A DNA stretch of 64,000 nucleotides, from the NCBI GenBank assembly GCA_027729635.1, contig JAQCEM010000010.1, positions 422 to 64,421 on the forward strand, given 5' to 3'. A model generated the notes under the pieces. That model did no database searches, was not told the DNA's origin, and saw nothing but the letters and a program-made list of their open reading frames with translations. Positions 1,684-41,698 of this stretch are shown here, piece by piece. A program made the translations under genes and the position numbers. The stretch's first letter is position 1; each line of letters begins with the position of its first letter. Source of the stretch: Actinomycetota bacterium (GTDB lineage Bacteria; Actinomycetota; Acidimicrobiia; Acidimicrobiales; Ilumatobacteraceae).

Positions 1684-4422
1684 TCACACGATGTACGGGT
1701 CGGTGCGGGCGGGATCAATGCTGTAATGAGCGATCGCACCTTCAACGATGTCAGCACCAACGGATCCCGATTGCGCCAAGCTCGCCAACACTGCGACAAC
1801 AATATTGGGCATGTCGACTTCGAAGTGAGCGCGTAATGCTTCGCGAGTATCGCTACGACCCATGCCGTCGGTTCCGAGTGCAGTGAATAATCGACCAGGA
1901 ACAAATCGAGCGATCTGTTCGGGCACGATCTTCATGAAATCGGTGACGGCCACAATCGGATCGGTTGACCCACCGAGTAATGAGGTCACGCGCGCAACCT
2001 TGTCGGGATGACTGGGGTGCAAACGATTATCACGTTCAACAGCCAATGCATCTTCGCGCAATGACTTGTACGAAGTTGCCGACCAGAGATCAACACCAAC
2101 GTTGAACCGTGACTTGAGTTCTTCGGCCGCAGCGATGGCGGCACCTTGCGCCGAGCCACTAAACAAAACCGTTGCGTTGTGCTTGATATTGCTATCGGCT
2201 GGTGCGGCCTGCCATTTGTAAAGGCCCGACACGATGTGTGCGTCGGTGACACCAGCAGGTCGAGCGGGCATGATGTAGTTCTCGTTGTACAACGTGAGGT
2301 AATAGAAAACGTCGGGATCAACTTCGCCATTGGGTCCCTTGGCATCGCCGTACATTTGATTTAGGCCATGCTTAATAATCGCCGCAACTTCGTAAGCAAA
2401 TGCGGGGTCGTACGACTGACATGCGGGCACGGTTGAAGCCAATACCAAACTGTGTCCGTCTTGGTGTTGTAACCCTTCGCCCATCAATGTGGTGCGACCG
2501 GCGGTGGCTCCGAGCAAGAAACCCCGGGTGCGACTGTCGGCCGCTTGCCAAATGAGGTCACCCACTCGTTGGAAACCAAACATTGAATAGAAGGTGTAGA
2601 ACGGCACCGATGGAACGCCGCGAGTTGCATACGAAGTTCCGGCCGCAATGAAACTGCTCATCGCTCCGGCTTCGGTAATTCCTTCTTCAAGAATCTGTCC
2701 GTCGGTTGACTCGGTATACGACAACAACATGTCGTGGTCAACCGGTTCGTATTTCTGACCCTGCGACGCGTAGATCTTGAGTTCTCTGAACAATGAGTCC
2801 ATGCCAAAGGTGCGGGCTTCATCGGGGATGATGGGCACAACACGTGACCCGAACTTTTCGTCGCGCGCCAAGTTGCGTAGCAATCGGGTGAATCCCATTG
2901 TGGTGCTGACTGATTGCTCGCCTGATCCACCATCAAGTTCGCTGAACACTGTGTCAGCAGGTAGTTCGAGTGGACGACGAGCCCGCACGATGCGCTTCGG
3001 AATAGAGCCGCCTAAAGCACGGCGACGTTCAAGCAGATACTGATATTCAACTGAACCTTCGCTTGGACGGAAGTACGGCGGAACATCGCCCTGAAGCGCT
3101 GAATCGGGAATCTCGTCATTGAGATGTAAACGATCACGAAGAGTGCGAATTTGTTCGGCATTCATCTTCTTGATCTGGTGAGTTGCGTTACGGCCTTCAA
3201 TGTCGGGACCAAGTGTCCAACCCTTGACGGTCTTACACAGAATTGCTGTGGGTCGTCCGCTGCCAAGATTTTGCGCAGCAGCACGATAAGCCGCATACAA
3301 CTTGCGATAGTCGTGACCGCCACGCGGAAGTGTGCGAAGGTCATCATCGCTTAAGTGCGCAACCATCTGTCGGAGGCGGTCGTCGGGGCCGAAGAAGTTT
3401 TCGCGAATGTAGTTGCCATCTTCGATGGTGTACCGCTGGAATTCGCCGTCCACAGTTGAATTCATCTGATTGAGCAACACGCCATCTTTATCTTGCGCGA
3501 GCAAGTTGTCCCACTTTGAACCCCAAATGACTTTGATGACATTCCATCCAGCACCGCGGAATACTGCTTCAAGTTCTTGAATGATTTTTCCGTTGCCACG
3601 AACCGGACCATCAAGCCGTTGCAAGTTGCAGTTAACAACAAACACCAAGTTGTCAAGGTGTTCACGTGAAGCCAACGATAATGCACCGAGCGTTTCGGGC
3701 TCGTCGGTTTCGCCGTCGCCGAGATACGCCCACACGCGACTGTTGCTCGTGTCATCAAGTTGACGATTCATGAGATAGCGGTTGAAGCGTGCGTGATAAA
3801 TCGCGCTGATGGGTCCGAGACCCATGCTGACCGTGGGATGTTCCCAAAAGTCGGGCATCAGTCGTGGGTGCGGATAGCTCGAGAGCCCCTGACCTGGCCG
3901 TGCAATTTCGCGACGGAAGTGATCAAGATCGTTTTCGCTTAAGCGACCTTCAAGAAATGCTCGTGCGTAAATTCCGGGAGCAGCATGGCCCTGAAAATAA
4001 ATGTGATCGCCAGCGTTGCCATCATCTTTGCCACGGAAGAAATGGTTGAAACCAATTTCGTAAAGGCTGGCCGAACTGGCAAATGTTGAAAGGTGTCCAC
4101 CGATTCCCTCGGCGTGTTTGTTGGCGCGCACCACCATGGCCGCGGCATTCCAACGAATGAATGCGCGAATACGACGTTCGATGTGTTCGTCGCCTGGGAA
4201 CCATGGTTCTTGTTCGCGCGGAATGGTGTTCACATACGGAGTTGAAACTGTTGCAGGAAAACTGACCTGACTCTGCTGCGCCTTTTCAAGCAATCGAGAT
4301 AACAGATAACGCGCCCGCACTTTTCCATGAACATCAATGACCGAATCAAGAGAGTCAAGCCATTCTTGAGTTTCACCGGGATCGGTATCGGGAAGTTGGT
4401 GGACGGAGCCATCAAAGAGCAT
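1684..4422 (-). CDS. aceE: pyruvate dehydrogenase E1 component, homodimeric type
   Basis: 912 aa. The N-terminus DTDPGETQEWLDSLDSV...RARYLL and the overall length are typical of AceE. ThDP-binding region GDGETDEPE. ATG at 4422. Confidence 0.95.
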   Translation of the reverse strand: MLFDGSVHQLPDTDPGETQEWLDSLDSVIDVHGKVRARYLLSRLLEKAQQSQVSFPATVSTPYVNTIPREQEPWFPGDEHIERRIRAFIRWNAAAMVVRANKHAEGIGGHLSTFASSASLYEIGFNHFFRGKDDGNAGDHIYFQGHAAPGIYARAFLEGRLSENDLDHFRREIARPGQGLSSYPHPRLMPDFWEHPTVSMGLGPISAIYHARFNRYLMNRQLDDTSNSRVWAYLGDGETDEPETLGALSLASREHLDNLVFVVNCNLQRLDGPVRGNGKIIQELEAVFRGAGWNVIKVIWGSKWDNLLAQDKDGVLLNQMNSTVDGEFQRYTIEDGNYIRENFFGPDDRLRQMVAHLSDDDLRTLPRGGHDYRKLYAAYRAAAQNLGSGRPTAILCKTVKGWTLGPDIEGRNATHQIKKMNAEQIRTLRDRLHLNDEIPDSALQGDVPPYFRPSEGSVEYQYLLERRRALGGSIPKRIVRARRPLELPADTVFSELDGGSGEQSVSTTMGFTRLLRNLARDEKFGSRVVPIIPDEARTFGMDSLFRELKIYASQGQKYEPVDHDMLLSYTESTDGQILEEGITEAGAMSSFIAAGTSYATRGVPSVPFYTFYSMFGFQRVGDLIWQAADSRTRGFLLGATAGRTTLMGEGLQHQDGHSLVLASTVPACQSYDPAFAYEVAAIIKHGLNQMYGDAKGPNGEVDPDVFYYLTLYNENYIMPARPAGVTDAHIVSGLYKWQAAPADSNIKHNATVLFSGSAQGAAIAAAEELKSRFNVGVDLWSATSYKSLREDALAVERDNRLHPSHPDKVARVTSLLGGSTDPIVAVTDFMKIVPEQIARFVPGRLFTALGTDGMGRSDTREALRAHFEVDMPNIVVAVLASLAQSGSVGADIVEGAIAHYSIDPARTDPYIV

Positions 4423-26605: not shown

Positions 26606-27061
26606 ATGGGTCAGCCTGTTGTCGTCGTTGAAAAGCAAAGTCGTCGCCCCGGAGTTGTCTGGTTTGAGGCCAATCGCAGTTTGTCGGGGATGGGTCACGA
26701 GAGTTTCTTGTCATCCGACACCAATGCGCACGCTGTTTCGTCAATCACCCCGTCGGCTGAATTAGCCCGTCGCCTCTTTTCCACCGGTCGTGTGACTGGT
26801 GTTCACGTGTATCAAAACATGATCACTGTCGATCTCGCAAAGGGTTTTGACTCTGAGGGTTTGCAGGACATTGTGCGCGATTTGTATCAATATTGGAAGC
26901 CAGGCATGGTTCCGCCAGCATTTGAAGGCTTGGTGGCCGCTGAAGAAGCGCCGGCCGTAAGTAGTGCGCCTTCTGAAGGTGGAGCAGTGATTGACAGCCG
27001 TGTGCCAGCCCATCTGATTGAACGCAGCCGAGCGGCTCGCGCCCGGTTAACAGGCCAGTAA
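26606..27061 (+). CDS. Nfu/NifU N-terminal-like scaffold domain protein (tentative)
   Basis: The core LARRLFSTGRVTGVHVYQNMITVDLAKGFD...IVRDLY resembles the Nfu_N domain. The start is uncertain. Confidence 0.5.
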   Translation: MGQPVVVVEKQSRRPGVVWFEANRSLSGMGHESFLSSDTNAHAVSSITPSAELARRLFSTGRVTGVHVYQNMITVDLAKGFDSEGLQDIVRDLYQYWKPGMVPPAFEGLVAAEEAPAVSSAPSEGGAVIDSRVPAHLIERSRAARARLTGQ

Positions 27062-27136
27062 CAGGTCGTGAATCAGTCCTGAATAGGGCCAGAAGTCCTT
27101 TTGGTGGGCGACTTATTTGTCATCGCACAATCTCTC

Positions 27137-27154
27137 ATGCACTGGGGGGTGCAT
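27137..27154. promoter_or_regulatory. candidate operator: 6-6-6 palindrome ATGCAC-TGGGGG-GTGCAT upstream of the HTH-B12 regulator gene
   Basis: Perfect inverted hexamers 8 nt upstream of the TTG start at 27162. No second copy seen in the window. Confidence 0.3.
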
Positions 27155-27161
27155 TTAGCCT

Positions 27162-28013
27162 TTGCCTGTGGAGACAAATGTACTGACGCTTGACGAGGTT
27201 AAAGAGGTCCTCGGCGTGAGTTACATGACGGTCTACCGCTACGTGAAGAGCCGCCGTTTAGAGGGTTACCAGGTTGGCGGAGTGTGGCACGTGTCGCAAG
27301 AAGCGCTGCGGCAGTTCCAAGAAGAAAAGAATCAGCCCAAGAAACGCACGTCCACCTCGGGCGATGCGCGTCGCACGACGAACTACGCCGAAGAACTTGA
27401 ACGTTGTTTGACCGCCGGAGATTCAAGCGGATCATTAGAGGTGGTCAAGCGAGCCGTTGATGCCGGCGCTGATGTCGAGCGGGTGTACCTCGAAGTTCTG
27501 TCTCCGGCCATGGCGTCAATTGGTGCATCGTGGGCGGCTGGCGAAATTGATATTGCGATTGAGCATCAGGCCAGCGCGATTGTGACTCGTTTGGTCGGTC
27601 AACTGAGTCCACGTCCACGTGGTCGTCGACGTGGCCAGGTGTTGATTGGTGGCCCAACTGGCGAGCGCCACGCATTGGCTTTGGCGATGTTAGCTGACCT
27701 GTTGCGTCTGCAGGGATGGGAAGTACTCGACTTGGGCGGGGATACCCCGGCTGCATCGTTCGTTCATACCGCTAGCAAAATGACCGACTTAGTGGCCGTG
27801 GGCGTGAGTCTGACATCAGTTGAGTCTGAAGCTTCAGCGGCGGCCACCTTGACCTCTTTGCGGGCGGCAATTGGCCCCGATGTGCCGGTGGTCTTAGGCG
27901 GAGGTGCGATTCGGGACGAGAAGCACGCTCGTGACCTGGGGGCCGACCATTTCGCGATGGGCGCTCGGGGTTTCATCGAGTTCCTCGATCAGCGCAAGAA
28001 AAAATCCGCCTGA
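27162..28013 (+). CDS. DNA-binding protein: excisionase-type (HTH_17-like) helix-turn-helix fused to a CarH/LitR-like cobalamin-binding light-sensor module
   Basis: HTH: LTLDEVKEVLGVSYMTVYRYVKSRRLEGYQVGGVWHVSQEAL. B12-binding_2 helical bundle with an exact Wx9EH motif (W124 AAGEIDIAI E134 H135). Rossmann B12 domain VLIGGPTGERHALALAML (E168-x-H170), then VAVGVS and VVLGGGA. Confidence 0.8.
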   Translation: MPVETNVLTLDEVKEVLGVSYMTVYRYVKSRRLEGYQVGGVWHVSQEALRQFQEEKNQPKKRTSTSGDARRTTNYAEELERCLTAGDSSGSLEVVKRAVDAGADVERVYLEVLSPAMASIGASWAAGEIDIAIEHQASAIVTRLVGQLSPRPRGRRRGQVLIGGPTGERHALALAMLADLLRLQGWEVLDLGGDTPAASFVHTASKMTDLVAVGVSLTSVESEASAAATLTSLRAAIGPDVPVVLGGGAIRDEKHARDLGADHFAMGARGFIEFLDQRKKKSA

Positions 28014-28019
28014 AACTTA

Positions 28020-28033
28020 CGAACACCTGTTCG
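28020..28033. promoter_or_regulatory. LexA (SOS) box upstream of imuA'
   Basis: CGAAC-ACCT-GTTCG matches the actinobacterial/Gram-positive SOS consensus (T)CGAAC-N4-GTTCG(A). It lies 15 nt upstream of the imuA' ATG. Its flanks (TA...CTAG) are identical to those of the box at 32809. Confidence 0.75.
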
Positions 28034-28047
28034 CTAGAGTCGGAGGC

Positions 28048-28824
28048 ATGTCGTCGGTTCGTGTCTCATCTCTCTCACCATCGCTGTCGGGTCCCCTGTC
28101 TGAAATGACGCTGTCTGAAATGACGCTGGCGCGCGAGCGCTTATTGCCTGTTCATCAAACTCTCGCTCCACTTTTTGGGCTGAACGCTGACGACCCCACT
28201 CCATTGGCATTGACTCGTGGGCACACCGTGGCGTGTGTGGGCTCGGCGGCAATGTCGTGTGCTTTGGCGGTTTTGGTAGCCCCGACCCGAGCGGGTTCGT
28301 GGGCCGGTGTTGTGGGTTTGCCGAGTTGTGGAGTGCAAGCCGCTGCTGATTTAGGTGTTGCACTTGAGCGAACGGTTTTTGTTGCCGACCCAACGGGGGG
28401 TTCGCGAACCTCTGGACAACAAGGCGATGCAGCAGCGGCGTTATCGGCTCTGGTTGACGGAGTTGATGTGCTGTTACTCGGGCAACGCGTTGTGAGTTCA
28501 TTATCGACATCGTTATTGCGCCGTTTGCAAACTCGAGTGCAATCGCGCGGCGGTGTTTTGGTTATTGTGAGTGAAGCAAAGTCTTTGGTGAGTTCATTGT
28601 CGGCTGATGTGCGACTTACTGCGACAACTCAACAATGGCAAGGTGTTGATTTGGGTTACGGTCATCTGCAACGACGTCAAGTGTTGTTGCAACTTGATGG
28701 TCGCCGAAGGGCTCGCACAACTGAACAACAGGTGTGGTTGCCCGATCATCAGGGGCAATTGAGTCCGGTTGAAAAAGCAGCAGAAAACACGGGCGTGGTT
28801 ATTCCGTTACGTCACGTTGGTTAA
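28048..28824 (+). CDS. imuA': ImuA'-like SOS mutasome accessory protein (RecA-fold, no Walker A recognised)
   Basis: Sits immediately upstream of imuB behind a LexA box. About 258 aa with the typical block RGHTVACVG...AGSWAGVVGLPSCGVQAAADLGVALERTVFV...DVLLLG. The start is taken at ATG 28048; the tracked GTG at 27904 overlaps the previous gene and the LexA box. Confidence 0.7.
   Translation: MSSVRVSSLSPSLSGPLSEMTLSEMTLARERLLPVHQTLAPLFGLNADDPTPLALTRGHTVACVGSAAMSCALAVLVAPTRAGSWAGVVGLPSCGVQAAADLGVALERTVFVADPTGGSRTSGQQGDAAAALSALVDGVDVLLLGQRVVSSLSTSLLRRLQTRVQSRGGVLVIVSEAKSLVSSLSADVRLTATTQQWQGVDLGYGHLQRRQVLLQLDGRRRARTTEQQVWLPDHQGQLSPVEKAAENTGVVIPLRHVG
28096..28125 (+). repeat. perfect 15-bp tandem duplication inside imuA' (encodes LSEMT-LSEMT)
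   Basis: CTGTCTGAAATGACG occurs twice back to back, in frame, followed by CTG. Confidence 0.9.
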
Positions 28825-28827
28825 TCG

Positions 28828-30504
28828 ATGGCCGCCATTCAGCCACCGCGTTGCGCGGTTCTGCACACTCCAGCGTGGCCAATTGCTGCAGCAATCTTGC
28901 ATGAGCCCGAAACTTTTCACGTCGCGCAACCACTTGCGGTTTTTCACGCACAACGAGTTTTGTCATGTTCACCTTTGGCTTGGCGTGAAGGAGTTCGTCC
29001 CGGGCAGCGACGACGGCAAGCACAAGGTGCATGTCCGCATTTAGTCATCGTCCCGTTTAACGCTGATCGTGATGCGCGTATGTACGAACCGCTCGTGCAA
29101 TCGATAGGAACTCTGGTTCCACTGATTGATGTTGAAAATCCAGGGTCATTGTTGTTGGCCACACGCGGGCCATCGCGTTACGTCGGCGGCGACGATGCTT
29201 TGGCAGTGCGCCTACTTACATTGGCGAGCGAAGGTTTGTCTCATGCCAACCAGGGTCTGAATGTTGATGAGGTCATCGCAGCAGGCGGAGGTTTGGGCGT
29301 TGGTATTGCCGATGGTCGTATCGCTGCAACATTGGTCGCGCGTTCATCATCACGTCGAGGTGAACCAGTAGTTATTCAGCCTGGACACGAAGCAACTGCA
29401 ACATTCTTGGCGCCGTATGCGGTGAAAGTTTTAACTGCAGTTGCCGGATGTTCGCCAGACTTAGTTGATCTTTTGGAACGACTTGGTTTGCGACAACTTG
29501 GTGATATCGCACGCTTGTCGGTGACCGATTTAGTCGGACGATTTGGTGCGATTGGTGAAACTCTCCATCGCTTGGCAAGTGGCACTGATGACACCCCGCC
29601 GTCAACGATTCCGCCGCCACCTGATCTAACAATGTCTCGAGTCTTTGATGATCCGTTGTTGCAACTTGACATGTTGGTCTTTGCGGCCAAAGCACTCACC
29701 GATGAATTAGGTGCCTACTTCCACGAACGTGGACAAGTGTGTACGCGCGTGCAAGTTGAAGCCGAGAGTGAACACGGTGAAAGTTCGCAACGCGTGTGGT
29801 ATCGGGCCGAAGGAATGCGTTCGGCCACATTGCTTGATCGCGTGCGTTGGCAACTTGATGGTTGGATCAACGGCACCGAACCACCAACCGCTGGTGTCAC
29901 TTTGTTGCGGGTCACCCCGATTGATATTCGTTCTGATGCGGGCACACAAGTTGGTTTTTGGGGTGGTCGATCAGAAGCCGATGACAATGCAACACGGGCG
30001 ATTACGCGGGTCATTGGTTTGCTAGGACCACAGAGCGTCACAGTTGCGTCGTGGCGGGGTGGACGCGACCCGCGTGAGGTGTACGAGATGGTGTGTTTCG
30101 CTGATATTGGCAGTGCCGATTCTGGAGGTGTCGGGCAGCAACTTGTTTTGCGCCCTGATGATGATGCTGACGCCGCAGAATGGCCTGGTTCGTTACCTGC
30201 ACCTGCACCAGCAGTTGTGCATCACGACCCATTACTTGTTGAAGTAACCGATGTCCATGGTCGGGTGGTGGCTGTGAATGGACGCGGACTGGTGAGTGCT
30301 ACGCCAACAACTTTGTTGCAACATGGTCAGTCGTATCGCATTGTGGCGTGGGCCGGGCCGTGGCCAGTCGATGAGCGTTGGTGGGATCAACGCGCTCGTC
30401 GGGCTGCCCGATTCCAGTTGGTCATCGAACAGCCCGACGGGCAGTGTGCGTATCTTGCTGAAGTAGCGGCCGGTCAATGGTGGCTGACCGCCGAGTATGC
30501 CTAA
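28828..30504 (+). CDS. imuB: ImuB, Y-family-polymerase-like mutasome subunit
   Basis: 558 aa in the position between imuA' and dnaE2. The N-terminal Y-family-like region (RCAVLHTPAWPIAAA...LAVFHAQRVLSCS, PLIDVENPGSLLL) lacks obvious catalytic acidic triads, as expected for ImuB. Confidence 0.8.
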   Translation: MAAIQPPRCAVLHTPAWPIAAAILHEPETFHVAQPLAVFHAQRVLSCSPLAWREGVRPGQRRRQAQGACPHLVIVPFNADRDARMYEPLVQSIGTLVPLIDVENPGSLLLATRGPSRYVGGDDALAVRLLTLASEGLSHANQGLNVDEVIAAGGGLGVGIADGRIAATLVARSSSRRGEPVVIQPGHEATATFLAPYAVKVLTAVAGCSPDLVDLLERLGLRQLGDIARLSVTDLVGRFGAIGETLHRLASGTDDTPPSTIPPPPDLTMSRVFDDPLLQLDMLVFAAKALTDELGAYFHERGQVCTRVQVEAESEHGESSQRVWYRAEGMRSATLLDRVRWQLDGWINGTEPPTAGVTLLRVTPIDIRSDAGTQVGFWGGRSEADDNATRAITRVIGLLGPQSVTVASWRGGRDPREVYEMVCFADIGSADSGGVGQQLVLRPDDDADAAEWPGSLPAPAPAVVHHDPLLVEVTDVHGRVVAVNGRGLVSATPTTLLQHGQSYRIVAWAGPWPVDERWWDQRARRAARFQLVIEQPDGQCAYLAEVAAGQWWLTAEYA

Positions 30505-31368
30505 TCAGGAATTGCTTGAGGCAGTTTGAGATTCGAGTGAACGTGACGACGCAAGATCATGCTTCGCTAGTTGCAAAAGGTCATCAGCGAGACGGAAACC
30601 GATGCCACGTACCGTGTGCAAGAAACGTAACTCTGGTGCTCGCTCGGTCAATTTGCGACGCAAGTTTGATAAGTGAACGTCAACAACATGAGTGTCGCCG
30701 ACCCAGTGCGGGCCCCAAACACTTTCGAGCAATTCAACACGGCTGCACACTTCAAGTGGGCGCAAACACAATTGTGAGAACAGATCGAACTCAAGGCGAG
30801 TTGCGGCGATGGGGTAGCGGTTGACGCGAATTTCGCGCCGGCCAAGGTCAATATCAAGCGGACCGAAATACAGATTCTTGGGTTGACCATCACTGACAAT
30901 TGCGTGAGCAAACTGACGTGAGCGACGCATCAATGCTTGGCACCGTACGGCAACTTCATCGGGGGAAACTTCGATGGGTAAAGCGTGGTCGGCGCCATTA
31001 CGCAGCACGGTGATGCGTTGGTCATCAGAGTTGGCGCCAACAACGATGATGTAGATCTCGGGGCAACGGCGTACCTGAGTCATGAGATTGTTGGGAAGCG
31101 GGTAAGCATCGCGAGCGTCAACCACGATCAGGTCGGGGGCAAATGAGCGAAGCATGACTTCGGCGGCCGTGTGATCGTTGGTTGAGCGCACGACATAGCC
31201 AATGCGCTGCAGGGCGGCTTCGACCGAACGACGGTCTGAGTTGTGGATCAAAGTCACCAAAGCTCGAGGGGTTGATTCGCCCTCGGGGTGTTGTTCAACA
31301 CCGCCGGCCACGGTAGGACGGAGTCGTGATTCGGTTGATCCGGGGAAGTGGGTCTCTATAAGTGTCAT
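30505..31368 (-). CDS. OmpR/PhoB-type winged-helix response regulator with a degenerate (atypical) receiver domain; no kinase nearby
   Basis: The receiver has the acceptor Asp context DLIVVDARD. It lacks the N-terminal acidic pair (LVTLIHNSD instead of ..DD.), and the conserved Lys of the K-P motif reads GADHALPIEVSPDE. C-terminal Trans_reg_C: FGPLDIDLGRREIRVN...LEFDLFSQL...VVDVHLSNLRRKL...TVRGIGFRL. Confidence 0.8.
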   Translation of the reverse strand: MTLIETHFPGSTESRLRPTVAGGVEQHPEGESTPRALVTLIHNSDRRSVEAALQRIGYVVRSTNDHTAAEVMLRSFAPDLIVVDARDAYPLPNNLMTQVRRCPEIYIIVVGANSDDQRITVLRNGADHALPIEVSPDEVAVRCQALMRRSRQFAHAIVSDGQPKNLYFGPLDIDLGRREIRVNRYPIAATRLEFDLFSQLCLRPLEVCSRVELLESVWGPHWVGDTHVVDVHLSNLRRKLTERAPELRFLHTVRGIGFRLADDLLQLAKHDLASSRSLESQTASSNS

Positions 31369-31573: not shown

Positions 31574-32779
31574 GTGCTTTCAACGCTCGGAATCACCATG
31601 AACACTTCACCGAATCACGAACCATCAGAACTTCAGCCAGAGACTTTGGCGATTAGTGCGGGTCGCCCCGACGGTCAGATCTCGATGGCTCCCGTCATGT
31701 TTGCGTCGACGACTTACGAGATGAGTTCGCTCGAAGAGGGTCGCAAGATGGCGCACTCAACTAAAGCGGGAAAGTTCTATGGCCGTCATGGCAACCCCAC
31801 GGTGCAGGCGTTTGAAAGTGCAGTCGCCGAACTTGAAGGTGCTGAAGCGGCGCGGGCCTATGCGTCAGGTATGGGCGCAATCGCTGGTGTCATTCTTGGT
31901 TTGTGTTCAAAGGGTGATCACATCGTTGCGCAGAAGCAGTTGTATGGCGGCACGATGCAGTTGCTCGCCGGCGTGTGTCCGCGATTCGGCATTGATGTCA
32001 CATTTGTTGACGGCACGAAGCTCGGTGCATTTGCTGAAGCGGTGATTCCTGGTCGCACGATGATGGTGTTTGCTGAAACGCCAGCGAATCCGTTGCTTGA
32101 CATCGTTGATCTTGATGACTTGGGTTCAATCAAAGGCCCAATAACTGTTGTGGATTCGACGTTGTCAACACCACTTGGTTCGCGTCCACTTGACCACGGT
32201 GTCAATTTGGTTTTGCACTCAGCAACTAAGGCGATGGCGGGTCATAACGATGCAACTCTTGGTGTTGTTGCGGGTGAATGTGATCTCATTGATGCGTTGT
32301 GGGGCTTTGCGGTTTTGCAAGGTGCATGTGCTTCGCCGTTTGATGCATTGAATGGTTTGCGTGGTTTGCGCACACTTGGTCCACGCTTGCGTCAACAAGG
32401 TGCGAACGCTGCTGCGATTGGCAGCGCCCTTGAAGCGCACCCAGCCGTTATTTCAGTACGTCATCCAGGACTTGAATCTCATCCGCAGTTTGCATTGGCA
32501 TCGCGTCAGTACCGCATGCATGGCGGCGTGTTGTCATTTGAATTGTCAGGTGGCCTTGAAGCCGGTGCCAAGTTCGTGCGATCGGTGAAGTTGTGTCATG
32601 CCGCAACATCAATGGGTGGTCCCGAGACTCTGGTGACGCATCCGGCTTCAACAACTCATGCCGGAATGACTCTAGAAGAACTTGCCGACAGCGGGATTAC
32701 TCCGGGAACAGTGCGGATGAGTTGTGGTCTTGAGCATCCCGATGATCTGATCGCCGACGTTCTGCAGGCGCTCGCCTAA
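31574..32779 (+). CDS. Cys/Met-metabolism PLP-dependent enzyme (cystathionine gamma-synthase/lyase or methionine gamma-lyase family)
   Basis: YGRHGNPTV, ASGMGAI, VVDSTLSTP, and the PLP-lysine block HSATKAMAGHND. C-terminal GLEHPDDLIADV. The start could be GTG 31574 or ATG 31598. Confidence 0.85.
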   Translation: MLSTLGITMNTSPNHEPSELQPETLAISAGRPDGQISMAPVMFASTTYEMSSLEEGRKMAHSTKAGKFYGRHGNPTVQAFESAVAELEGAEAARAYASGMGAIAGVILGLCSKGDHIVAQKQLYGGTMQLLAGVCPRFGIDVTFVDGTKLGAFAEAVIPGRTMMVFAETPANPLLDIVDLDDLGSIKGPITVVDSTLSTPLGSRPLDHGVNLVLHSATKAMAGHNDATLGVVAGECDLIDALWGFAVLQGACASPFDALNGLRGLRTLGPRLRQQGANAAAIGSALEAHPAVISVRHPGLESHPQFALASRQYRMHGGVLSFELSGGLEAGAKFVRSVKLCHAATSMGGPETLVTHPASTTHAGMTLEELADSGITPGTVRMSCGLEHPDDLIADVLQALA

Positions 32780-32808: not shown

Positions 32809-32822
32809 CGAACATATGTTCG
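32809..32822. promoter_or_regulatory. LexA (SOS) box upstream of dnaE2
   Basis: CGAAC-ATAT-GTTCG lies 14 nt upstream of the tracked dnaE2 start. The extended site TACGAACATATGTTCGCTAG matches the box at 28020 (TACGAACACCTGTTCGCTAG) outside the 4-nt spacer. Confidence 0.75.
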
Positions 32823-32835
32823 CTAGCCTGTCGAC

Positions 32836-35800
32836 ATGGGGTCGACATGGGGAATGCAGGGACCAACCACCTGGTCTGAACTGGAAGCTCGCTTATCGGG
32901 CCGAAAACCCCAGTCGTCATCGCAATCTTCGTCGGCCCATTCTTCGCCGTCGGTCGTTCGGCTGGCCCGCGACCCGCTAGTTACGCCCGAACCTGATCGC
33001 ACGCCCACTGGTGGCACACCTCGGCCTGTTGTGCCGTATGCCGAACTGCACTGTCACTCAAACTTTTCGTTTCTCGATGGGGCGTCGCATCCAGAAGAGT
33101 TAGCCGAAGAGGCTCATCGTTTGGGTCTAACTGCGCTGGCAGTCACCGATCACAACGGTCTGTACGGCGTGGTGCGTTTTGCAGAGGCGGCGCGCGTGGT
33201 GGGCTTACCAACAGTGTTCGGCAGTGAAATTACTGTTCAGGCATCTGCTGGTCCGCAACACCTCGTTGTGTTGGCTGATGGCACTGCGGGATACGCGCGT
33301 CTGGCGCGAGCATTGAGCCTGGCGCAGTTGGCCGGCAGCAAAGGCGATCCGCGTTGCACGATGCCCGATCTTGCTGACGTAGGAGCGGGACATTGGTGGG
33401 TGATGACGGGTTGCCGACAAGGTGCAGTGCCTTCGGCGTTGGTTGATCATGGTCCGAGTGCGGCATTGCGTGAACTGCAAAAACTGATTACTGCGTTTGG
33501 TCGAGATCGTGTGTTAATTGAACTTTGGGATCACGGCGATCCACTTGATACGGCGCGCAATGATGCAATGGCTGAATTGGCGGCGCGCGCTGATGTGCAG
33601 TGTATTGCCACGAACAATGTTCATTACGCAACACCATCGGCGCGACGATTAGCGACGGCAATCGCTGCGGTGAATCAGCGGTGCAGTCTTGATGAGATTG
33701 ATCACTGTTTGCCGGCAGCGGCCACAGCGCATTTGCGAAGTGGTGCTGAACAATCACGACGATTCGCGCGTTATCCGGGGGTTGTTGATTTGGCGGCCGA
33801 GATTGGTCGTGCTGCAGCATTCGATTTATCGCTCGTGGCCCCAAAGTTGCCGCCGTATCCGTGCCCTGATGGTTTGACCGAAATGCAATTTTTGCGACGA
33901 CTCACTGAAGAGGGTGCACGACGTCGGTATGGAGAGCGCCCACAAAGTGGGGAAGACCTGAGTATTCGCGCGCGAGCGTGGAAAACAATTGATCATGAAC
34001 TTGAAGTTGTTGAACTGCTGGGGTTTGCGGGCTATTTCTTGGTGGTGTGGGACATCGTGCAGTTCTGCAATGACTCCGATATTTTTTGTCAGGGTCGCGG
34101 AAGTGCGGCTAATAGTGCGGTGTGTTATTCGCTGGGAATCACCAAAGCCGATGCGGTGTCGTTGGGATTGTTGTTTGAACGTTTCTTATCGCCCGATCGT
34201 GATGGTCCACCTGATATTGATCTTGATATTGAGAGCGGCCGTCGTGAAGAGGTCATTCAATATGTTTTCAATCGCTATGGACGTCACCACACTGCGCAAG
34301 TAGCCAACGTGATTACCTATCGCGCGCGTTCGGCGGTACGCGATATGGCGCGGGCTCTTGGGTATGCGCCGGGCCAACAAGATGCGTGGTCAAAGCAAAT
34401 GGATATGTGGCGCAATGTGGCCGCAAACTCTCCGGATAAAACTCCAGAGGGTCGTGTTGATCAAGCCATTCCACCGTTGGTTCTAGAACTTGCTGCCGAA
34501 ATTGAAGATGCGCCGCGTCATCTTGGTATTCACTCGGGTGGAATGGTGATTTGTGATCGCCCAGTGATTGAAGTGTGTCCCGTTGAATGGGGGCGTATGA
34601 AAGACCGCAGTGTTTTGCAATGGGATAAAGACGATTGCGCGGCGGCTGGATTGGTGAAGTTTGACTTGCTGGGTCTCGGAATGTTGTCGGCTTTACACGG
34701 TGCAGTTGATCTAGTGAAGCGCCATAAAGGTGTTGCGATTGATTTGGCTGCGTTGCCGCAAGATGATGATGTGTACGCAATGTTGTGTCGAGCCGACACG
34801 GTTGGTGTTTTTCAAATTGAATCACGTGCGCAAATGGCAACATTGCCACGGCTTAAGCCTCGGCGTTTCTATGACTTGGTTGTTGAGGTTGCACTCATTC
34901 GTCCGGGACCGATTCAGGGTGGTTCGGTGCATCCGTATATTCGCCGACGTAATGGTCAAGAGCCCATTACGTATTTGCATCCATTGCTCGAAAATAGCTT
35001 GGGAAAAACCTTGGGTATTCCGTTGTTTCAAGAACAACTGATGCAGATGGCAATTGATGTTGCTGGGTTCTCGGCTTCTGAAGCTGATCAGTTGCGACAA
35101 GCGATGGGTTCGAAGCGCAGTCAGAAACGTATGCAGTTATTGCGACAGCGTTTATATGAGGGCATGGCCGAACGCGGAATTGTCGGTGATATCGCTGATG
35201 AGATTTTCGACAAGATGGCGGCCTTCGCCAATTACGGATTTCCTGAAAGCCACTCGGTGTCGTTTGCCTACTTGGTGTATTCGTCATCGTGGCTCAAGTT
35301 GTACGAGCCTGCAGCTTTTTACGCGGGGCTTTTGAATGCGCAGCCCATGGGCTTTTGGAGTCCGCATTCGTTGGCGCAAGATGCGCGCCGACATGGCGTG
35401 GTGGTGCGCACGCCCGATCTGTTGGCATCTGGTGCGCAGGCAACTCTTGAAGAGTGCGCAGAAAGCCACGGTGGTTTTGCAGTGCGTTTAGGGCTGAGTT
35501 CAATTCGTGGAATTGGTGCGGGGCTTGCGGAGCAGATTGAAGATGAGCGGGAGTTACACGGTGATTATGTTGATGCCGAAGATCTGGTGCGACGGGTTGA
35601 TGAGTTAACGCTTTCGCAACTTGAGGCCATGGCAACAGGTGGAATTTTCACCGAGTGTTTTGGTCTTGAACGTCGGGAGGCATTGTGGGCAGTTGGTGCG
35701 GCTGCACAGTCGCGCCGCGATCGATTGCCAGGGTTGGCGACAGGAACACAGGCTCCGATGTTGCCGGGTATGGAACCACTTGAAGTTGCGGTTGCGGATT

Positions 35801-36180
35801 TGTGGGCCACGGGTGTGTCGCCCAATGGACACCCAACATCATTTTTGCGTGAACAACTTGATGCATATGGCGTGGTGCCTGCTGATCAATTATTGACGAC
35901 TGAACAAACCAAAGTATGGGTTGCGGGAACAGTGACTCATCGCCAACGACCGGCAACTGCTCAGGGAACAACGTTCATCAGTCTTGAAGATGAAACAGGT
36001 TTGATGAATGTGGTGGTGTCGGTGGGCTGCTGGAAACGGTTTCGGCCAGTGGCTCGCGGTGCGGGAGCGTTGTTAGTGCGAGGTCGTCTGCAGCGTTATG
36101 AAGGAGTGGTGAATATCGTCGCTGAACACATTGCGCCACTTTCGGTTGCAGCTCAAGTCACTGCCCGAAACTTCAGATAA
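32836..36180 (+). CDS. dnaE2: error-prone DNA polymerase III alpha-like subunit DnaE2
   Basis: 1114 aa. PHP domain YAELHCHSNFSFLDGAS and VTDHNGLYG. Polymerase core GRGSAANS, DIDLDIE, FDLLGLGML. It has a LexA box and sits in mutasome context. Confidence 0.92.
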   Translation: MGSTWGMQGPTTWSELEARLSGRKPQSSSQSSSAHSSPSVVRLARDPLVTPEPDRTPTGGTPRPVVPYAELHCHSNFSFLDGASHPEELAEEAHRLGLTALAVTDHNGLYGVVRFAEAARVVGLPTVFGSEITVQASAGPQHLVVLADGTAGYARLARALSLAQLAGSKGDPRCTMPDLADVGAGHWWVMTGCRQGAVPSALVDHGPSAALRELQKLITAFGRDRVLIELWDHGDPLDTARNDAMAELAARADVQCIATNNVHYATPSARRLATAIAAVNQRCSLDEIDHCLPAAATAHLRSGAEQSRRFARYPGVVDLAAEIGRAAAFDLSLVAPKLPPYPCPDGLTEMQFLRRLTEEGARRRYGERPQSGEDLSIRARAWKTIDHELEVVELLGFAGYFLVVWDIVQFCNDSDIFCQGRGSAANSAVCYSLGITKADAVSLGLLFERFLSPDRDGPPDIDLDIESGRREEVIQYVFNRYGRHHTAQVANVITYRARSAVRDMARALGYAPGQQDAWSKQMDMWRNVAANSPDKTPEGRVDQAIPPLVLELAAEIEDAPRHLGIHSGGMVICDRPVIEVCPVEWGRMKDRSVLQWDKDDCAAAGLVKFDLLGLGMLSALHGAVDLVKRHKGVAIDLAALPQDDDVYAMLCRADTVGVFQIESRAQMATLPRLKPRRFYDLVVEVALIRPGPIQGGSVHPYIRRRNGQEPITYLHPLLENSLGKTLGIPLFQEQLMQMAIDVAGFSASEADQLRQAMGSKRSQKRMQLLRQRLYEGMAERGIVGDIADEIFDKMAAFANYGFPESHSVSFAYLVYSSSWLKLYEPAAFYAGLLNAQPMGFWSPHSLAQDARRHGVVVRTPDLLASGAQATLEECAESHGGFAVRLGLSSIRGIGAGLAEQIEDERELHGDYVDAEDLVRRVDELTLSQLEAMATGGIFTECFGLERREALWAVGAAAQSRRDRLPGLATGTQAPMLPGMEPLEVAVADLWATGVSPNGHPTSFLREQLDAYGVVPADQLLTTEQTKVWVAGTVTHRQRPATAQGTTFISLEDETGLMNVVVSVGCWKRFRPVARGAGALLVRGRLQRYEGVVNIVAEHIAPLSVAAQVTARNFR

Positions 36181-39820: not shown

Positions 39821-41698
39821 TCAGACGGTAGTGGCTGACACACCAAATGCTGTGGCAGCAACGGGTCGACCGATGCGATATCCCTGCACCAAATCACAAC
39901 CGAGCAAGCGCAAACGTTCGATTTGCGCATCGGTTGTAACCCATTCGGCGATCACTGCCATATTGAGGCTGTGGGCCAACTGCACGATTCCGCGCACGAT
40001 GGGGTCATCGGTTTCGTCTTCGCCAAGTGCCCGAACAAATGATCCATCAAGTTTGAGGTAGTCGGCCGGACATGATCGTAGATGGGATAGCGACGAGTAC
40101 CCAGTTCCAAAATCATCAATTGATAGGCGAACACCGAATCTTTTCATTGATTGCAAAGTGCGCAAGGTGCTAGCAGTGTCGTTCATGAGCATTTTCTCGT
40201 CGAACTCCAGGGCTAAATGTTGTGGCTGCAAATCAAAATCATTGATGGCGGCCAATGTGCGCTCGACAAAACGGGTGTCTCCAACTTGGCGTGGCGAGAC
40301 ATTGACGTGAACAATGAATTGGCGATCAATACGTTTTTCATTCAGCCACACACGCATATCGGAACATGCTTGACGGATGACCCATTCACCAATGGGAACA
40401 ATGGCACCCGATTCTTCGGCGAGATCGACAAATGATGAAGGCGTGAGAAGCCCGAGTGTTGGATGACGCCAACGAAGCAAAGCCTCTGCGCCAACAACCT
40501 TGTTTGAATGTGGCGACATAACTGGCTGATACACAAGATGTAGTTCGTTGTTAGCCAGGGCTTGTTCAAGCGATGCGGACAATGTGGCGCGCTCTTTGGC
40601 AGTATTGCGCATGTTGTTGCTATACAACTCGCAGCGTGAACGCCCGCGCATCTTGGCGTGATACATGGCGGTGTCGGCGTTGCGCATGAGAGCAACAGCT
40701 GCGTCAACAAGCGCAGGTTCATCAATTTCGCCGCGAGTCATGGCCACGCCGAGGCTCGCGCCAGTCACTACTTCAATTCCTTGCAGCAATACGCGACCAG
40801 TGATTGCAGTGCGGATTCTCTCGGCAAGATCCATCGCTGCCTCTTCATCGGTGAGTCCTTCACACAAAATCACGAATTCATCTCCACCAATGCGCGCGAC
40901 GATATCGCCAGGGCGCGTTGCCGAAACCAGACGGCGTCCGATGTTGGTGATAAGGGCATCACCGTTTTCGTGACCAAGGCTGTCATTGATGTCTTTGAGT
41001 TTGTCAACATCTAAGAAGATCACCGACACAGTTGAAGTAGTGGAGCGCGAGCGTTCAATTGCTTCGGAGAGTTTGCGAATGAACAATGTGCGATTGGGTA
41101 GTCCGGTTAATACATCATGAGTTGCGAGGTGGGCCAGCTCGGCTTGTAGTCGCAAGGAAGAACTGATATCGCGGGCCAGCATCGTGATGCGATCGTTCGC
41201 GCAGGCAACTTGAACATCAAACGTGTGCAGTTCGTTGTCGGAGCCGCGTAGACCAACTTCGCCGCGCCAGTTTGAATTGGGCGTTGACAAAATTTCCCGG
41301 GGCATTTGATCGCGTACCGAAACGGCCATCTGATCAAAGTGGCTGGCGGCTTCGTTGACGTGCAGAATGACACCATTCATGTCGGTGATGATCGTTGGGT
41401 CATCTGACGATTCAAGGAGGGCGAGCAGTTGGCCAGATTCGTGCGAGAACAACTGTTGATAAGCGGCCATCGCGATCACGACACCCGAGTAGCCGGTGAT
41501 TGATCCGTCGGCGTCAAGTCGAGGGTTGGCTAAAAAGCGAAGGGGCGAGCCTTGGTCATCAATGGACGGGATACTGACCTCAATATCAATGGACGATGAC
41601 GAGTCAATGGCGTTGCGCCACGCCTGTTCGGCTTTGGCGCGATCGTCGGGATGGGCGTTAGCCCAAGGAGCTCGACCGAGGGGGACTGGTCCGCCCAA
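39821..41698 (-). CDS. PAS-containing diguanylate cyclase / c-di-GMP phosphodiesterase (GGDEF + EAL)
   Basis: Intact RIGGDEFVIL (GGDEF). EAL domain: EALLRWRHP, NVSPRQ, LEFDE, IDDFGTGYSSLSHL, KLDGSFV, EWVTT. PAS-like segments at the N-terminus. The tracked start is TTG and the true start is uncertain. Confidence 0.9.
   Translation of the reverse strand: MGGPVPLGRAPWANAHPDDRAKAEQAWRNAIDSSSSIDIEVSIPSIDDQGSPLRFLANPRLDADGSITGYSGVVIAMAAYQQLFSHESGQLLALLESSDDPTIITDMNGVILHVNEAASHFDQMAVSVRDQMPREILSTPNSNWRGEVGLRGSDNELHTFDVQVACANDRITMLARDISSSLRLQAELAHLATHDVLTGLPNRTLFIRKLSEAIERSRSTTSTVSVIFLDVDKLKDINDSLGHENGDALITNIGRRLVSATRPGDIVARIGGDEFVILCEGLTDEEAAMDLAERIRTAITGRVLLQGIEVVTGASLGVAMTRGEIDEPALVDAAVALMRNADTAMYHAKMRGRSRCELYSNNMRNTAKERATLSASLEQALANNELHLVYQPVMSPHSNKVVGAEALLRWRHPTLGLLTPSSFVDLAEESGAIVPIGEWVIRQACSDMRVWLNEKRIDRQFIVHVNVSPRQVGDTRFVERTLAAINDFDLQPQHLALEFDEKMLMNDTASTLRTLQSMKRFGVRLSIDDFGTGYSSLSHLRSCPADYLKLDGSFVRALGEDETDDPIVRGIVQLAHSLNMAVIAEWVTTDAQIERLRLLGCDLVQGYRIGRPVAATAFGVSATTV

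Follow-up and report, generated by a model that had tools for sequence, protein, structure and literature searches.

Regulator gene and neighboring mutasome genes

The DNA analyzed here (the window) is a 64,000-nucleotide stretch of contig JAQCEM010000010.1 from a member of the Ilumatobacteraceae. On its plus strand it carries a gene for a putative light-responsive, cobalamin-binding regulator, located directly upstream of imuA' and imuB, two genes of a predicted SOS mutasome. The regulator gene occupies positions 27168..28013 (+), with its stop codon at 28011-13. Its open reading frame opens with a TTG at 27162, and translation of 27162..28013 (+) from this codon gives the 283-aa protein quoted in a first-pass annotation of the window, which had been made from the sequence alone. 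GTG 27168, which yields a protein of 281 aa, is the likelier start codon, because the 93%-identical homolog P0001 begins with METNVL and because a putative -10 element, TAGCCT (27156..27161, +), sits 6 nt 5' of this GTG in an arrangement typical of leaderless transcripts. Downstream lie imuA' (28048..28824, +), encoding a RecA-fold mutasome accessory factor (NCBIfam NF058630, Rv3395c/ImuA'; 88 bits, cut-off 65), and imuB (28828..30504, +), encoding an inactive Y-family polymerase-like mutasome subunit (Pfam IMS, 29.9 bits, cut-off 23.2, with weak matches to DinB models). The pair imuA'-imuB is kept in this order in all related loci. The catalytic subunit of the error-prone polymerase is encoded by dnaE2 (32836..36180, +; NCBIfam NF004225, 1444 bits, cut-off 939), which two unrelated genes separate from imuB. 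On the basis of these curated scores and of the SOS boxes described below, the neighboring genes qualify as a predicted LexA-regulated ImuA'-ImuB-DnaE2 mutasome.

Three Pfam domains were found in the regulator, each scoring above its curated cut-off, as the first-pass annotation had led us to expect: an HTH_17/excisionase-type winged helix-turn-helix (27180..27329, +; residues 7-56; 42.5 bits, cut-off 27), a B12-binding_2 four-helix bundle with the motif GxxW124-x9-E134-H135 (27387..27605, +; residues 76-148; 54.9 bits, cut-off 23) and a Rossmann B12-binding domain with the motifs G-E168-R-H170 and GxxxP (27639..27959, +; residues 160-266; 45.6 bits, cut-off 32.1). W124-x9-E134-H135 and E168-x-H170 are located exactly where they had been placed in that annotation, with the Trp codon TGG at 27531 and the His codon CAC at 27669.

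Cobalamin-binding module

A published signature of light-responsive cobalamin domains (SignatureFinder, PMC11796333) comprises GxxW, EH, GxxH and GxxxP in the region equivalent to residues 128-177 of Thermus thermophilus CarH (TtCarH). These motifs are complete in the regulator as G121-A-S-W124, E134-H135, G167-E-R-H170 and G192-G-D-T-P196, so that by its sequence the protein carries the marks of a light-responsive cobalamin domain. In alignment A1, G121, W124, E134, H135, G167, E168, H170, G192 and P196 are all invariant, and GxxWx9EH is present in all 167 extracted family members, G[DE]xH in 155 of them. The lower-ligand loop has an Ala in the position of the canonical Gly of xxG. The residue following the Trp is also Ala, as opposed to the cobalt-ligating His132 of light-state TtCarH; the validated photoreceptors SasPcob and CtMerR likewise have no His at this position.

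The closest sequence relatives of the regulator in the PDB are SasPcob (8J2W/X, E 2e-19), CtMerR (8JBS) and TtCarH/LitR (5C8D, 3WHP), with corrinoid shuttle proteins and MetH ranking below these photoreceptors. An AlphaFold (AF2) model built on 25 homologs (predicted local distance difference test score, pLDDT, 86) gave a fold ranking that agrees with the sequence ranking, and it aligns with TtCarH over its full length (Foldseek, E about 1e-13). The Trp-x9-Glu-His cap aligns residue by residue with those of TtCarH, SasPcob and CtMerR, and the GERH loop is aligned to GERHEIG in TtCarH, GEWHALP in SasPcob and GDLHEIA in CtMerR. All three of these proteins have been shown to bind adenosylcobalamin (AdoCbl) and to respond to light (PMC11796333, PMC10979010). 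The nearest solved cobalamin domains are those of the photocobilins SasPcob (8J2W) and AbDPcob (8J2Y), with a best match of E 2e-19, a template-modeling (TM) score of 0.66 and 32% identity; one of the two comes from an Acidimicrobiaceae bacterium (PMC10979010). The photocobilins end in a biliverdin-binding globin-like domain and lack a DNA-binding head, whereas the window protein stops after the Rossmann domain. The first-pass annotation had described a CarH-type light-sensing cobalamin module on an HTH_17 head, and the Pfam, PDB, fold and alignment evidence agree on this point; the regulator is likely a B12 photoreceptor-type transcription factor, probably AdoCbl-dependent.

B12-binding domains alone are no proof of photochemistry, as corrinoid proteins and MetH also match them, and the protein might instead sense cobalamin availability, reporting the dark AdoCbl level to nearby metabolism or DNA synthesis. 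Possible clients would be B12-dependent deoxynucleotide supply or the Cys/Met PLP enzyme at 31574-32779, a methionine-pathway enzyme encoded within the conserved block around the regulator. This is improbable given that the Wx9EH cap and the GxxW/EH/GxxH/GxxxP signature were specific to light-responsive domains in the published screen (PMC11796333). The top matches are moreover photoreceptors and not corrinoid shuttles, and paralogs of the regulator adjoin carotenoid, photolyase and UV-repair genes.

DNA-binding head and class assignment

B12-based photoreceptors are known almost only as MerR-headed CarH/LitR proteins that switch on carotenoid genes. The window protein has the same domain order as CarH and class I LitR (T. 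thermophilus CarH, 5C8D-F; Myxococcus xanthus CarH; Bacillus megaterium LitR), with an N-terminal winged helix-turn-helix, a four-helix bundle bearing Wx9EH and a Rossmann domain bearing the ExH lower ligand. It differs from them in that its head is of the HTH_17/excisionase type and in that its clade adjoins imuA'-imuB and not crt genes. The excisionase DNA-binding domain model TIGR01764 (NCBIfam) matches the head with 34.9 bits (cut-off 28.8), whereas the MerR models of Pfam (MerR and MerR_1) have no match to the regulator at E<0.01 and a sequence profile of the head retrieved no CarH chain from the PDB at E<10. The curated CarH model (NCBIfam NF052513, TransRegCarH) gives the regulator 69.4 bits over residues 48-263 only, against a cut-off of 400. 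The regulator thus lacks two defining features of CarH/LitR, the MerR head and the curated-model score; on present evidence it would work like CarH but is best filed in a separate family, here termed HTH_17-CBD (CBD, cobalamin-binding domain).

In the AF2 model the N-terminal 62 residues, taken by themselves, adopt a beta-alpha-alpha-beta-beta-alpha arrangement (pLDDT 85). The best Foldseek matches of this isolated domain are mycobacteriophage Pukovnik Xis, TraN, Streptomyces BldC and RacA, followed by MerR-family N-domains; the small MerR-like winged helix-turn-helix proteins Xis, BldC and RacA are the top structural matches, with TM scores of 0.65-0.71. The earlier description of the head as excisionase-type and not MerR therefore holds at the level of the family and fails as a difference of fold, since Xis, BldC, RacA and MerR N-domains all match the model. 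As modeled, the change of head appears to be an exchange between cousins of one Xis/MerR-like structural superfamily and does not introduce a new fold. Xis, BldC and RacA function on their own as DNA-binding or architectural proteins and have no sensor domain, whereas the window protein carries one. The heads of BldC and CarH bind DNA head-to-tail on repeats, which hints at a similar binding mode for the window protein. The recognition-helix motif YMTxYRYV is present in 162 of the 167 extracted family members.

A close precedent is CtMerR of Chloracidobacterium thermophilum (8JBS/8JBT), in which a CarH-like cobalamin domain that has the GxxW/EH/GxxH/GxxxP motifs in common with the window protein is joined to a divergent DNA-binding domain; this protein binds AdoCbl, responds to green light and has been described as a member of the MerR family (PMC11796333). 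The same study lists HTH-CBD fusions generically among 1561 database-mined candidates, with no HTH_17-CBD protein expressed or tested and no genomic context or SOS link reported. A literature search of incomplete coverage found no study of the HTH_17-CBD architecture beyond this generic mention, no paper joining imuA' or imuB with cobalamin, a photoreceptor or light, and none pairing CarH with HTH_17, excisionase with B12-binding and light, or Acidimicrobiia with CarH.

Family size and sister clades

With the window protein as query, 187 matches were obtained at E<=1e-5, and nearly all of the best 120 of these have the three-domain architecture. A paralog used as query matched at least 2918 clusters at 90% identity, with the full architecture in 119 of 120 among the matches listed. 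An exhaustive profile search returned 391 clusters at 50% identity (E<=1e-30), most of which span the whole profile including the head, and at least 558 places were matched in a set of species-representative genomes. The named sources are all Acidimicrobiia (Ilumatobacteraceae, Microthrixaceae, Acidimicrobiales and the freshwater acIV lineage). The first-pass annotation had considered that its proposal would fall if the architecture proved common and already characterized without a link to SOS genes. The architecture is indeed common, which counts against that interpretation; one of its clades adjoins SOS genes, and the literature searched contained no study of it. What is new here is the size and clade structure of the family, a candidate operator for its other clades, and the almost universal association of one clade with the SOS mutasome genes.

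Distant members of the family were looked up or scanned, and their neighbors were typed with marker proteins. Four recurrent partners were found: a divergent crtI-crtB-lycopene cyclase cluster with a pyrimidine-dimer glycosylase, a photolyase with WhiB, an SDR-amine oxidase-DUF1365-CFA synthase cluster (about 20 loci), and a sigma-70-family gene immediately upstream. In a neighbor-joining tree these contexts fall on separate clades, and the imuA'-linked proteins form one large clade with the basal L119 group apart; the imuA'-linked clade is one orthologous group within this large family of the Acidimicrobiia. MerR-type regulators of the LitR/CarH kind classically mediate the light induction of carotenoid, photolyase and CFA-synthase genes; in Vibrio cholerae, for example, light induction of photolyase and CFA synthase depends on MerR-like regulators (PMC5241685). 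For this reason these contexts provide, by analogy, the strongest indirect support for light sensing by the family, and each paralog probably serves its adjoining genes. Photoprotection neighbors (crt, photolyase, Pyr_excise, CFA) were found for the sister clades, whereas the window clade adjoins imuA'-imuB instead. No carotenoid, photolyase or other light-related gene was found within ~10 kb in the window.

In the carotenoid-linked locus L081 (6843-7298), the regulator gene and a Pyr_excise gene, encoding a pyrimidine-dimer DNA glycosylase, overlap at the stop codon of the former and the start of the latter, a second operon-like joining of this regulator family to a UV-damage function. In the sigma clade (L078, L083, L086, L111, L112, L118, L138, L152 and L158) the regulator begins 6-16 nt past a full-length sigma-70-family gene encoding regions 1.2, 2, 3 and 4. 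This arrangement is similar to the LitR-LitS light cascade of Streptomyces, except that the sigma factor here is not of the extracytoplasmic function (ECF) type.

Conserved synteny with imuA'-imuB

Synteny was examined by tblastn of the window proteins against the best 80 genome loci; in the clade of the window protein, loci with at least 900 nt of downstream flank (n=72) or with enough upstream flank (n=76) were testable. The first-pass annotation had proposed a genome survey of the adjacency, and the result is strong conservation: imuA'/imuB are located directly downstream of the regulator in 71 of the 72 testable species genomes, from related actinobacteria of aquatic habitats. A gene for a 151-aa protein (up151) lies directly upstream of the regulator in 75 of 76 testable loci. 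The order up151, regulator, imuA', imuB is found in essentially all of the best 80 loci, down to 43% regulator identity, and this core order persists while the outer genes vary. It extends to L119, a deep-branching metagenomic locus of 76% GC, in which the regulator is followed by a 15-nt gap, a LexA box and imuA'. A reverse, word-indexed search from ImuA' returned the same clade only (at least 46% identity), and a search of this kind could not show imuA' elsewhere without the regulator.

Promoters of imuA' and dnaE2

The LexA (SOS) box CGAACACCTGTTCG (CGAAC-ACCT-GTTCG; 28020..28033, +) lies in the spacer of the predicted imuA' promoter, whose -10 element, TAGAGT (28035..28040, +), is located 7 nt before the ATG at 28048, an arrangement again typical of leaderless transcripts. 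The distances given in the first-pass annotation are exact, with 6 nt from the regulator stop to the LexA box and 34 nt to the imuA' ATG, and the sequence between the two genes in the window contains no terminator-like site, in line with its statement on this point. The exact LexA core is present in 61 of 81 loci, with a CGTAC variant in about 10 more. The box usually comes 0-20 nt after the regulator stop (median about 17), which places the -35 region of the imuA' promoter over the 3' end of the regulator gene. GTG 27904, an in-frame codon farther 5', was considered as the start of imuA' and rejected, as homolog alignments begin at 28048 and the pattern of box, -10 and ATG is universal.

Exact LexA boxes occur only twice in the window, before imuA' and before dnaE2. 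The second, CGAACATATGTTCG (32809..32822, +), is followed by the -10 element TAGCCT (32824-29) and the dnaE2 ATG at 32836, so that the dnaE2 promoter is built like that of imuA'; its -10 is the same hexamer as the regulator -10. An 11-nt tandem duplication (GTCGACATGGG x2, 32830-32851) spans the dnaE2 start codon and creates a second, out-of-frame ATG. The LexA-regulated imuA'-imuB/dnaE2 mutasome of mycobacteria (PMC10421592) consists of the same three genes and has the same type of SOS box, CGAAC-N4-GTTCG, before imuA' and dnaE2. The two systems differ in what adjoins these genes in the window. To our knowledge, no cobalamin-binding regulator precedes Rv3395c in the gene order of M. tuberculosis.

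Regulator promoter and operator search

Upstream regions of the imuA'-linked clade were aligned with the -10 element as anchor. The resulting promoter layout consists of GCACGATCACGCA or the palindrome CTGCGT-T-ACGCAG, 18 nt, TAGCCT or TACGGT, 6 or 7 nt, and GTG; the pattern TAnnnT-N6/7-GTG/ATG is present in most loci of the clade. In the window the corresponding -35-region motif, strongly conserved in the clade, is GCACAATCTCTCA (27125..27137, +), located 18 nt 5' of the -10. It occurs once in the window, and the -35-region motifs of the clade are mostly restricted to this position in related loci, which makes the motif a candidate operator or a special -35 element.

The first-pass annotation had instead put forward the palindrome ATGCAC-TGGGGG-GTGCAT (27137..27154, +) as an autoregulatory site, with the regulator in an operon with imuA'-imuB. 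The palindrome is present and fills the -35/-10 spacer of the regulator promoter, where a repressor would block RNA polymerase, and its arms are kept (5-6 of 6 positions) while its spacer varies in L001-L003, which are 93-96% identical to the window protein; the lack of a terminator is also in keeping with an operon. This exact model is nonetheless very improbable. The palindrome is lost in L004-L007, at 78-80% protein identity, despite the near-invariant YMTxYRYV recognition helix, it has no second copy in the window, and it is not rarer than expected by chance: perfect 6-N6-6 inverted repeats number 32 in the window against about 16 in shuffled sequences, and perfect inverted repeats with 6-bp arms and spacers of 0-10 nt occur at about 0.5 per 100 nt. 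As a conserved operator it was therefore rejected, and the operon structure is not conserved either.

In the clades that are not linked to imuA', an AT-rich palindrome, tTTAG(C/T)(G/A)CTAAa (TTTAGYRCTAAA), is found 13-75 nt before the regulator start, often in two copies. It was seen in L081 and in L087-L162 (e.g., L081:5940-5975 and L087:6960-7030), covering the carotenoid, photolyase, CFA and unassigned clades, and is a good candidate for the family operator in these high-GC genomes. In L087 it also precedes a WhiB gene. Within the imuA' clade it is kept in a few loci only (L036, L041, L045, L119 and L162). As an operator for the window protein TTTAGYRCTAAA was rejected: only a left half is present, overlapping the -10, and this is read as a promoter element because the same TAGCCT serves as the dnaE2 -10. 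A shared operator at imuA' was likewise sought with GCACAATCTCTCA, the clade motifs GCACGATCACGCA and CTGCGTTACGCAG, and the TTTAGYRCTAAA matrix, and nothing convincing was obtained near imuA'. The 34-nt gap before imuA' leaves no room for a second operator, which would suit an AerR-like mode of action in which the cobalamin module is a light-dependent partner of another regulator, such as LexA, and the helix-turn-helix only tethers it nearby; B12 domains acting as antirepressors are known, AerR being an example (PMC5362033). Such a mode is hardly credible here, as the conserved DNA-binding head and the promoter motifs favor direct DNA binding.

Several further features were observed around the regulator in related loci. 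In L164 (239-252) and L165 (5959-5972) a LexA-like box, CGTACGCCAGTTCG, stands at the -35 position of the regulator's own promoter, which suggests that the regulator itself is SOS-controlled in this lineage. Short tandem repeats (CAACCCCATCTGACA x3; GGTTGGTCGATCCGG x4) are present in intergenic gaps around the regulator (L024:6870-6940, L092:6930-7000, and the upstream regions of L064 and L070), and L079 contains a 122-nt nested hairpin element (3893-4015; fold z = -7.2).

Possible light input to the SOS mutasome

ImuA'-ImuB-DnaE2 has been studied mainly for drug resistance in mycobacteria. Taken as a whole, the findings at this locus are best explained by an HTH_17-headed, CarH/LitR-like photoreceptor regulator with a light input to imuA'-imuB, a reading to which we assign a probability of about 50%. 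By analogy with CarH, an AdoCbl-bound oligomer would be bound to DNA in the dark and released by light. Dark-state binding would most likely occur in the regulator promoter itself, at its conserved -35-region motif, resulting in autoregulation. Light-induced transcription of the regulator could then run on into imuA'-imuB, because the regulator usually ends 0-20 nt from the LexA box with no terminator, or the protein could act locally on the imuA' promoter; by either route, light would join LexA as a second input to the SOS mutasome. Of the mechanism suggested in the first-pass annotation, the identity of the sensor and the conserved adjacency have held up, whereas the palindrome operator and a conserved operon with imuA'-imuB have not. 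Convergence of light and the SOS response on expression of the error-prone polymerase is a plausible and reasonable hypothesis. The chance of a real regulatory link between the regulator and imuA'-imuB appears to fall slightly short of even. More tentatively still, a dedicated B12 photoreceptor in Acidimicrobiia of sunlit waters may give imuA'-imuB(-dnaE2) a light input independent of, or gating, LexA, with error-prone lesion bypass primed by visible light ahead of UV damage; a CarH-type sensor with a non-MerR head would then place mutagenesis under the control of a photoreceptor.

A number of observations weigh against such an input. In 78 of 78 box-bearing loci the LexA box is followed by TAnnnT, 5-8 nt and ATG or GTG, and imuA'-imuB therefore appears to have its own SOS-controlled promoter, arranged for a leaderless transcript. 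With this arrangement imuA' is predicted to need no upstream transcription, and on a read-through transcript it would be without a properly spaced Shine-Dalgarno sequence. GC-rich hairpins are found in the gap between the regulator and imuA' of some relatives, and in seven loci 1-2.3 kb of unrelated genes, some of them on the opposite strand (e.g., an SDR gene), separate the two, so co-transcription is not the conserved feature. The idea of an operon thus retains the missing terminator in the window in its favor, while the autonomous imuA' promoter and the seven insertions speak against it. No motif is common to the regulator promoter and the imuA' or dnaE2 promoters, and a TTTAGYRCTAAA position weight matrix run over the window gave nothing above background. 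The imuA'-linked loci all come from one class, and part of the synteny may therefore be inherited.

The main rival explanation draws on these same observations, namely the autonomous LexA promoter, the tolerated insertions and the absence of a shared promoter motif. It holds that the regulator is a light-responsive neighbor of imuA' without a regulatory link, controlling itself and/or distant photoprotection genes, and that its position reflects inherited gene order within the Acidimicrobiia. The flanking acyl-CoA dehydrogenase, up151, response regulator and Cys/Met enzyme genes are also often syntenic, as inheritance would predict. We consider this explanation unlikely, although it is a serious one. 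The regulator-imuA'-imuB core persists to 43% identity and in the 76%-GC deep branch while the outer genes vary, and each of the other clades keeps to a neighbor of coherent function, as local regulators would.

Whatever the target of the window protein, a large family appears to place the light switch of CarH on an excisionase-type head; it comprises hundreds of clusters at 50% identity, from Acidimicrobiia that abound in fresh water, the sea and soil. Its paralogs seem to have diversified towards different photoprotection loci, and one of them is firmly associated with the SOS mutasome genes. If a light input to imuA'-imuB is real, the level of error-prone replication would be set by visible light and not by DNA damage alone, with consequences for mutation rates in surface waters and for the regulation of ImuA'-ImuB-DnaE2 outside the mycobacteria. 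The compact protein might further serve optogenetics as a green-light part that differs in DNA specificity.

Other features of the window

The conserved 5' neighbor of the regulator, up151 (26606..27061, +), has no Pfam match above cut-off (Nfu_N, E=0.0017, is below it) and no NCBIfam or PDB match. Its start region shows a separate TAAGGT-N6-ATG arrangement typical of leaderless transcripts; the encoded protein, which has a conserved helix (VPAxLxERSRAA) at its C-terminus, may act together with the regulator or with the mutasome. An OmpR-type regulator gene (30505-31368, -; Trans_reg_C, with a weak receiver-domain match) lies convergently between imuB and the Cys/Met PLP enzyme gene and is kept in most related loci. 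The other neighbors in the window are housekeeping genes (RmlD, MOSC, AIR-synthase-like, RNase HII, LysE, NUDIX, rhomboid and PIG-L), and a PAS-GGDEF-EAL protein is encoded at 39821-41698 (-), 4 kb past dnaE2.

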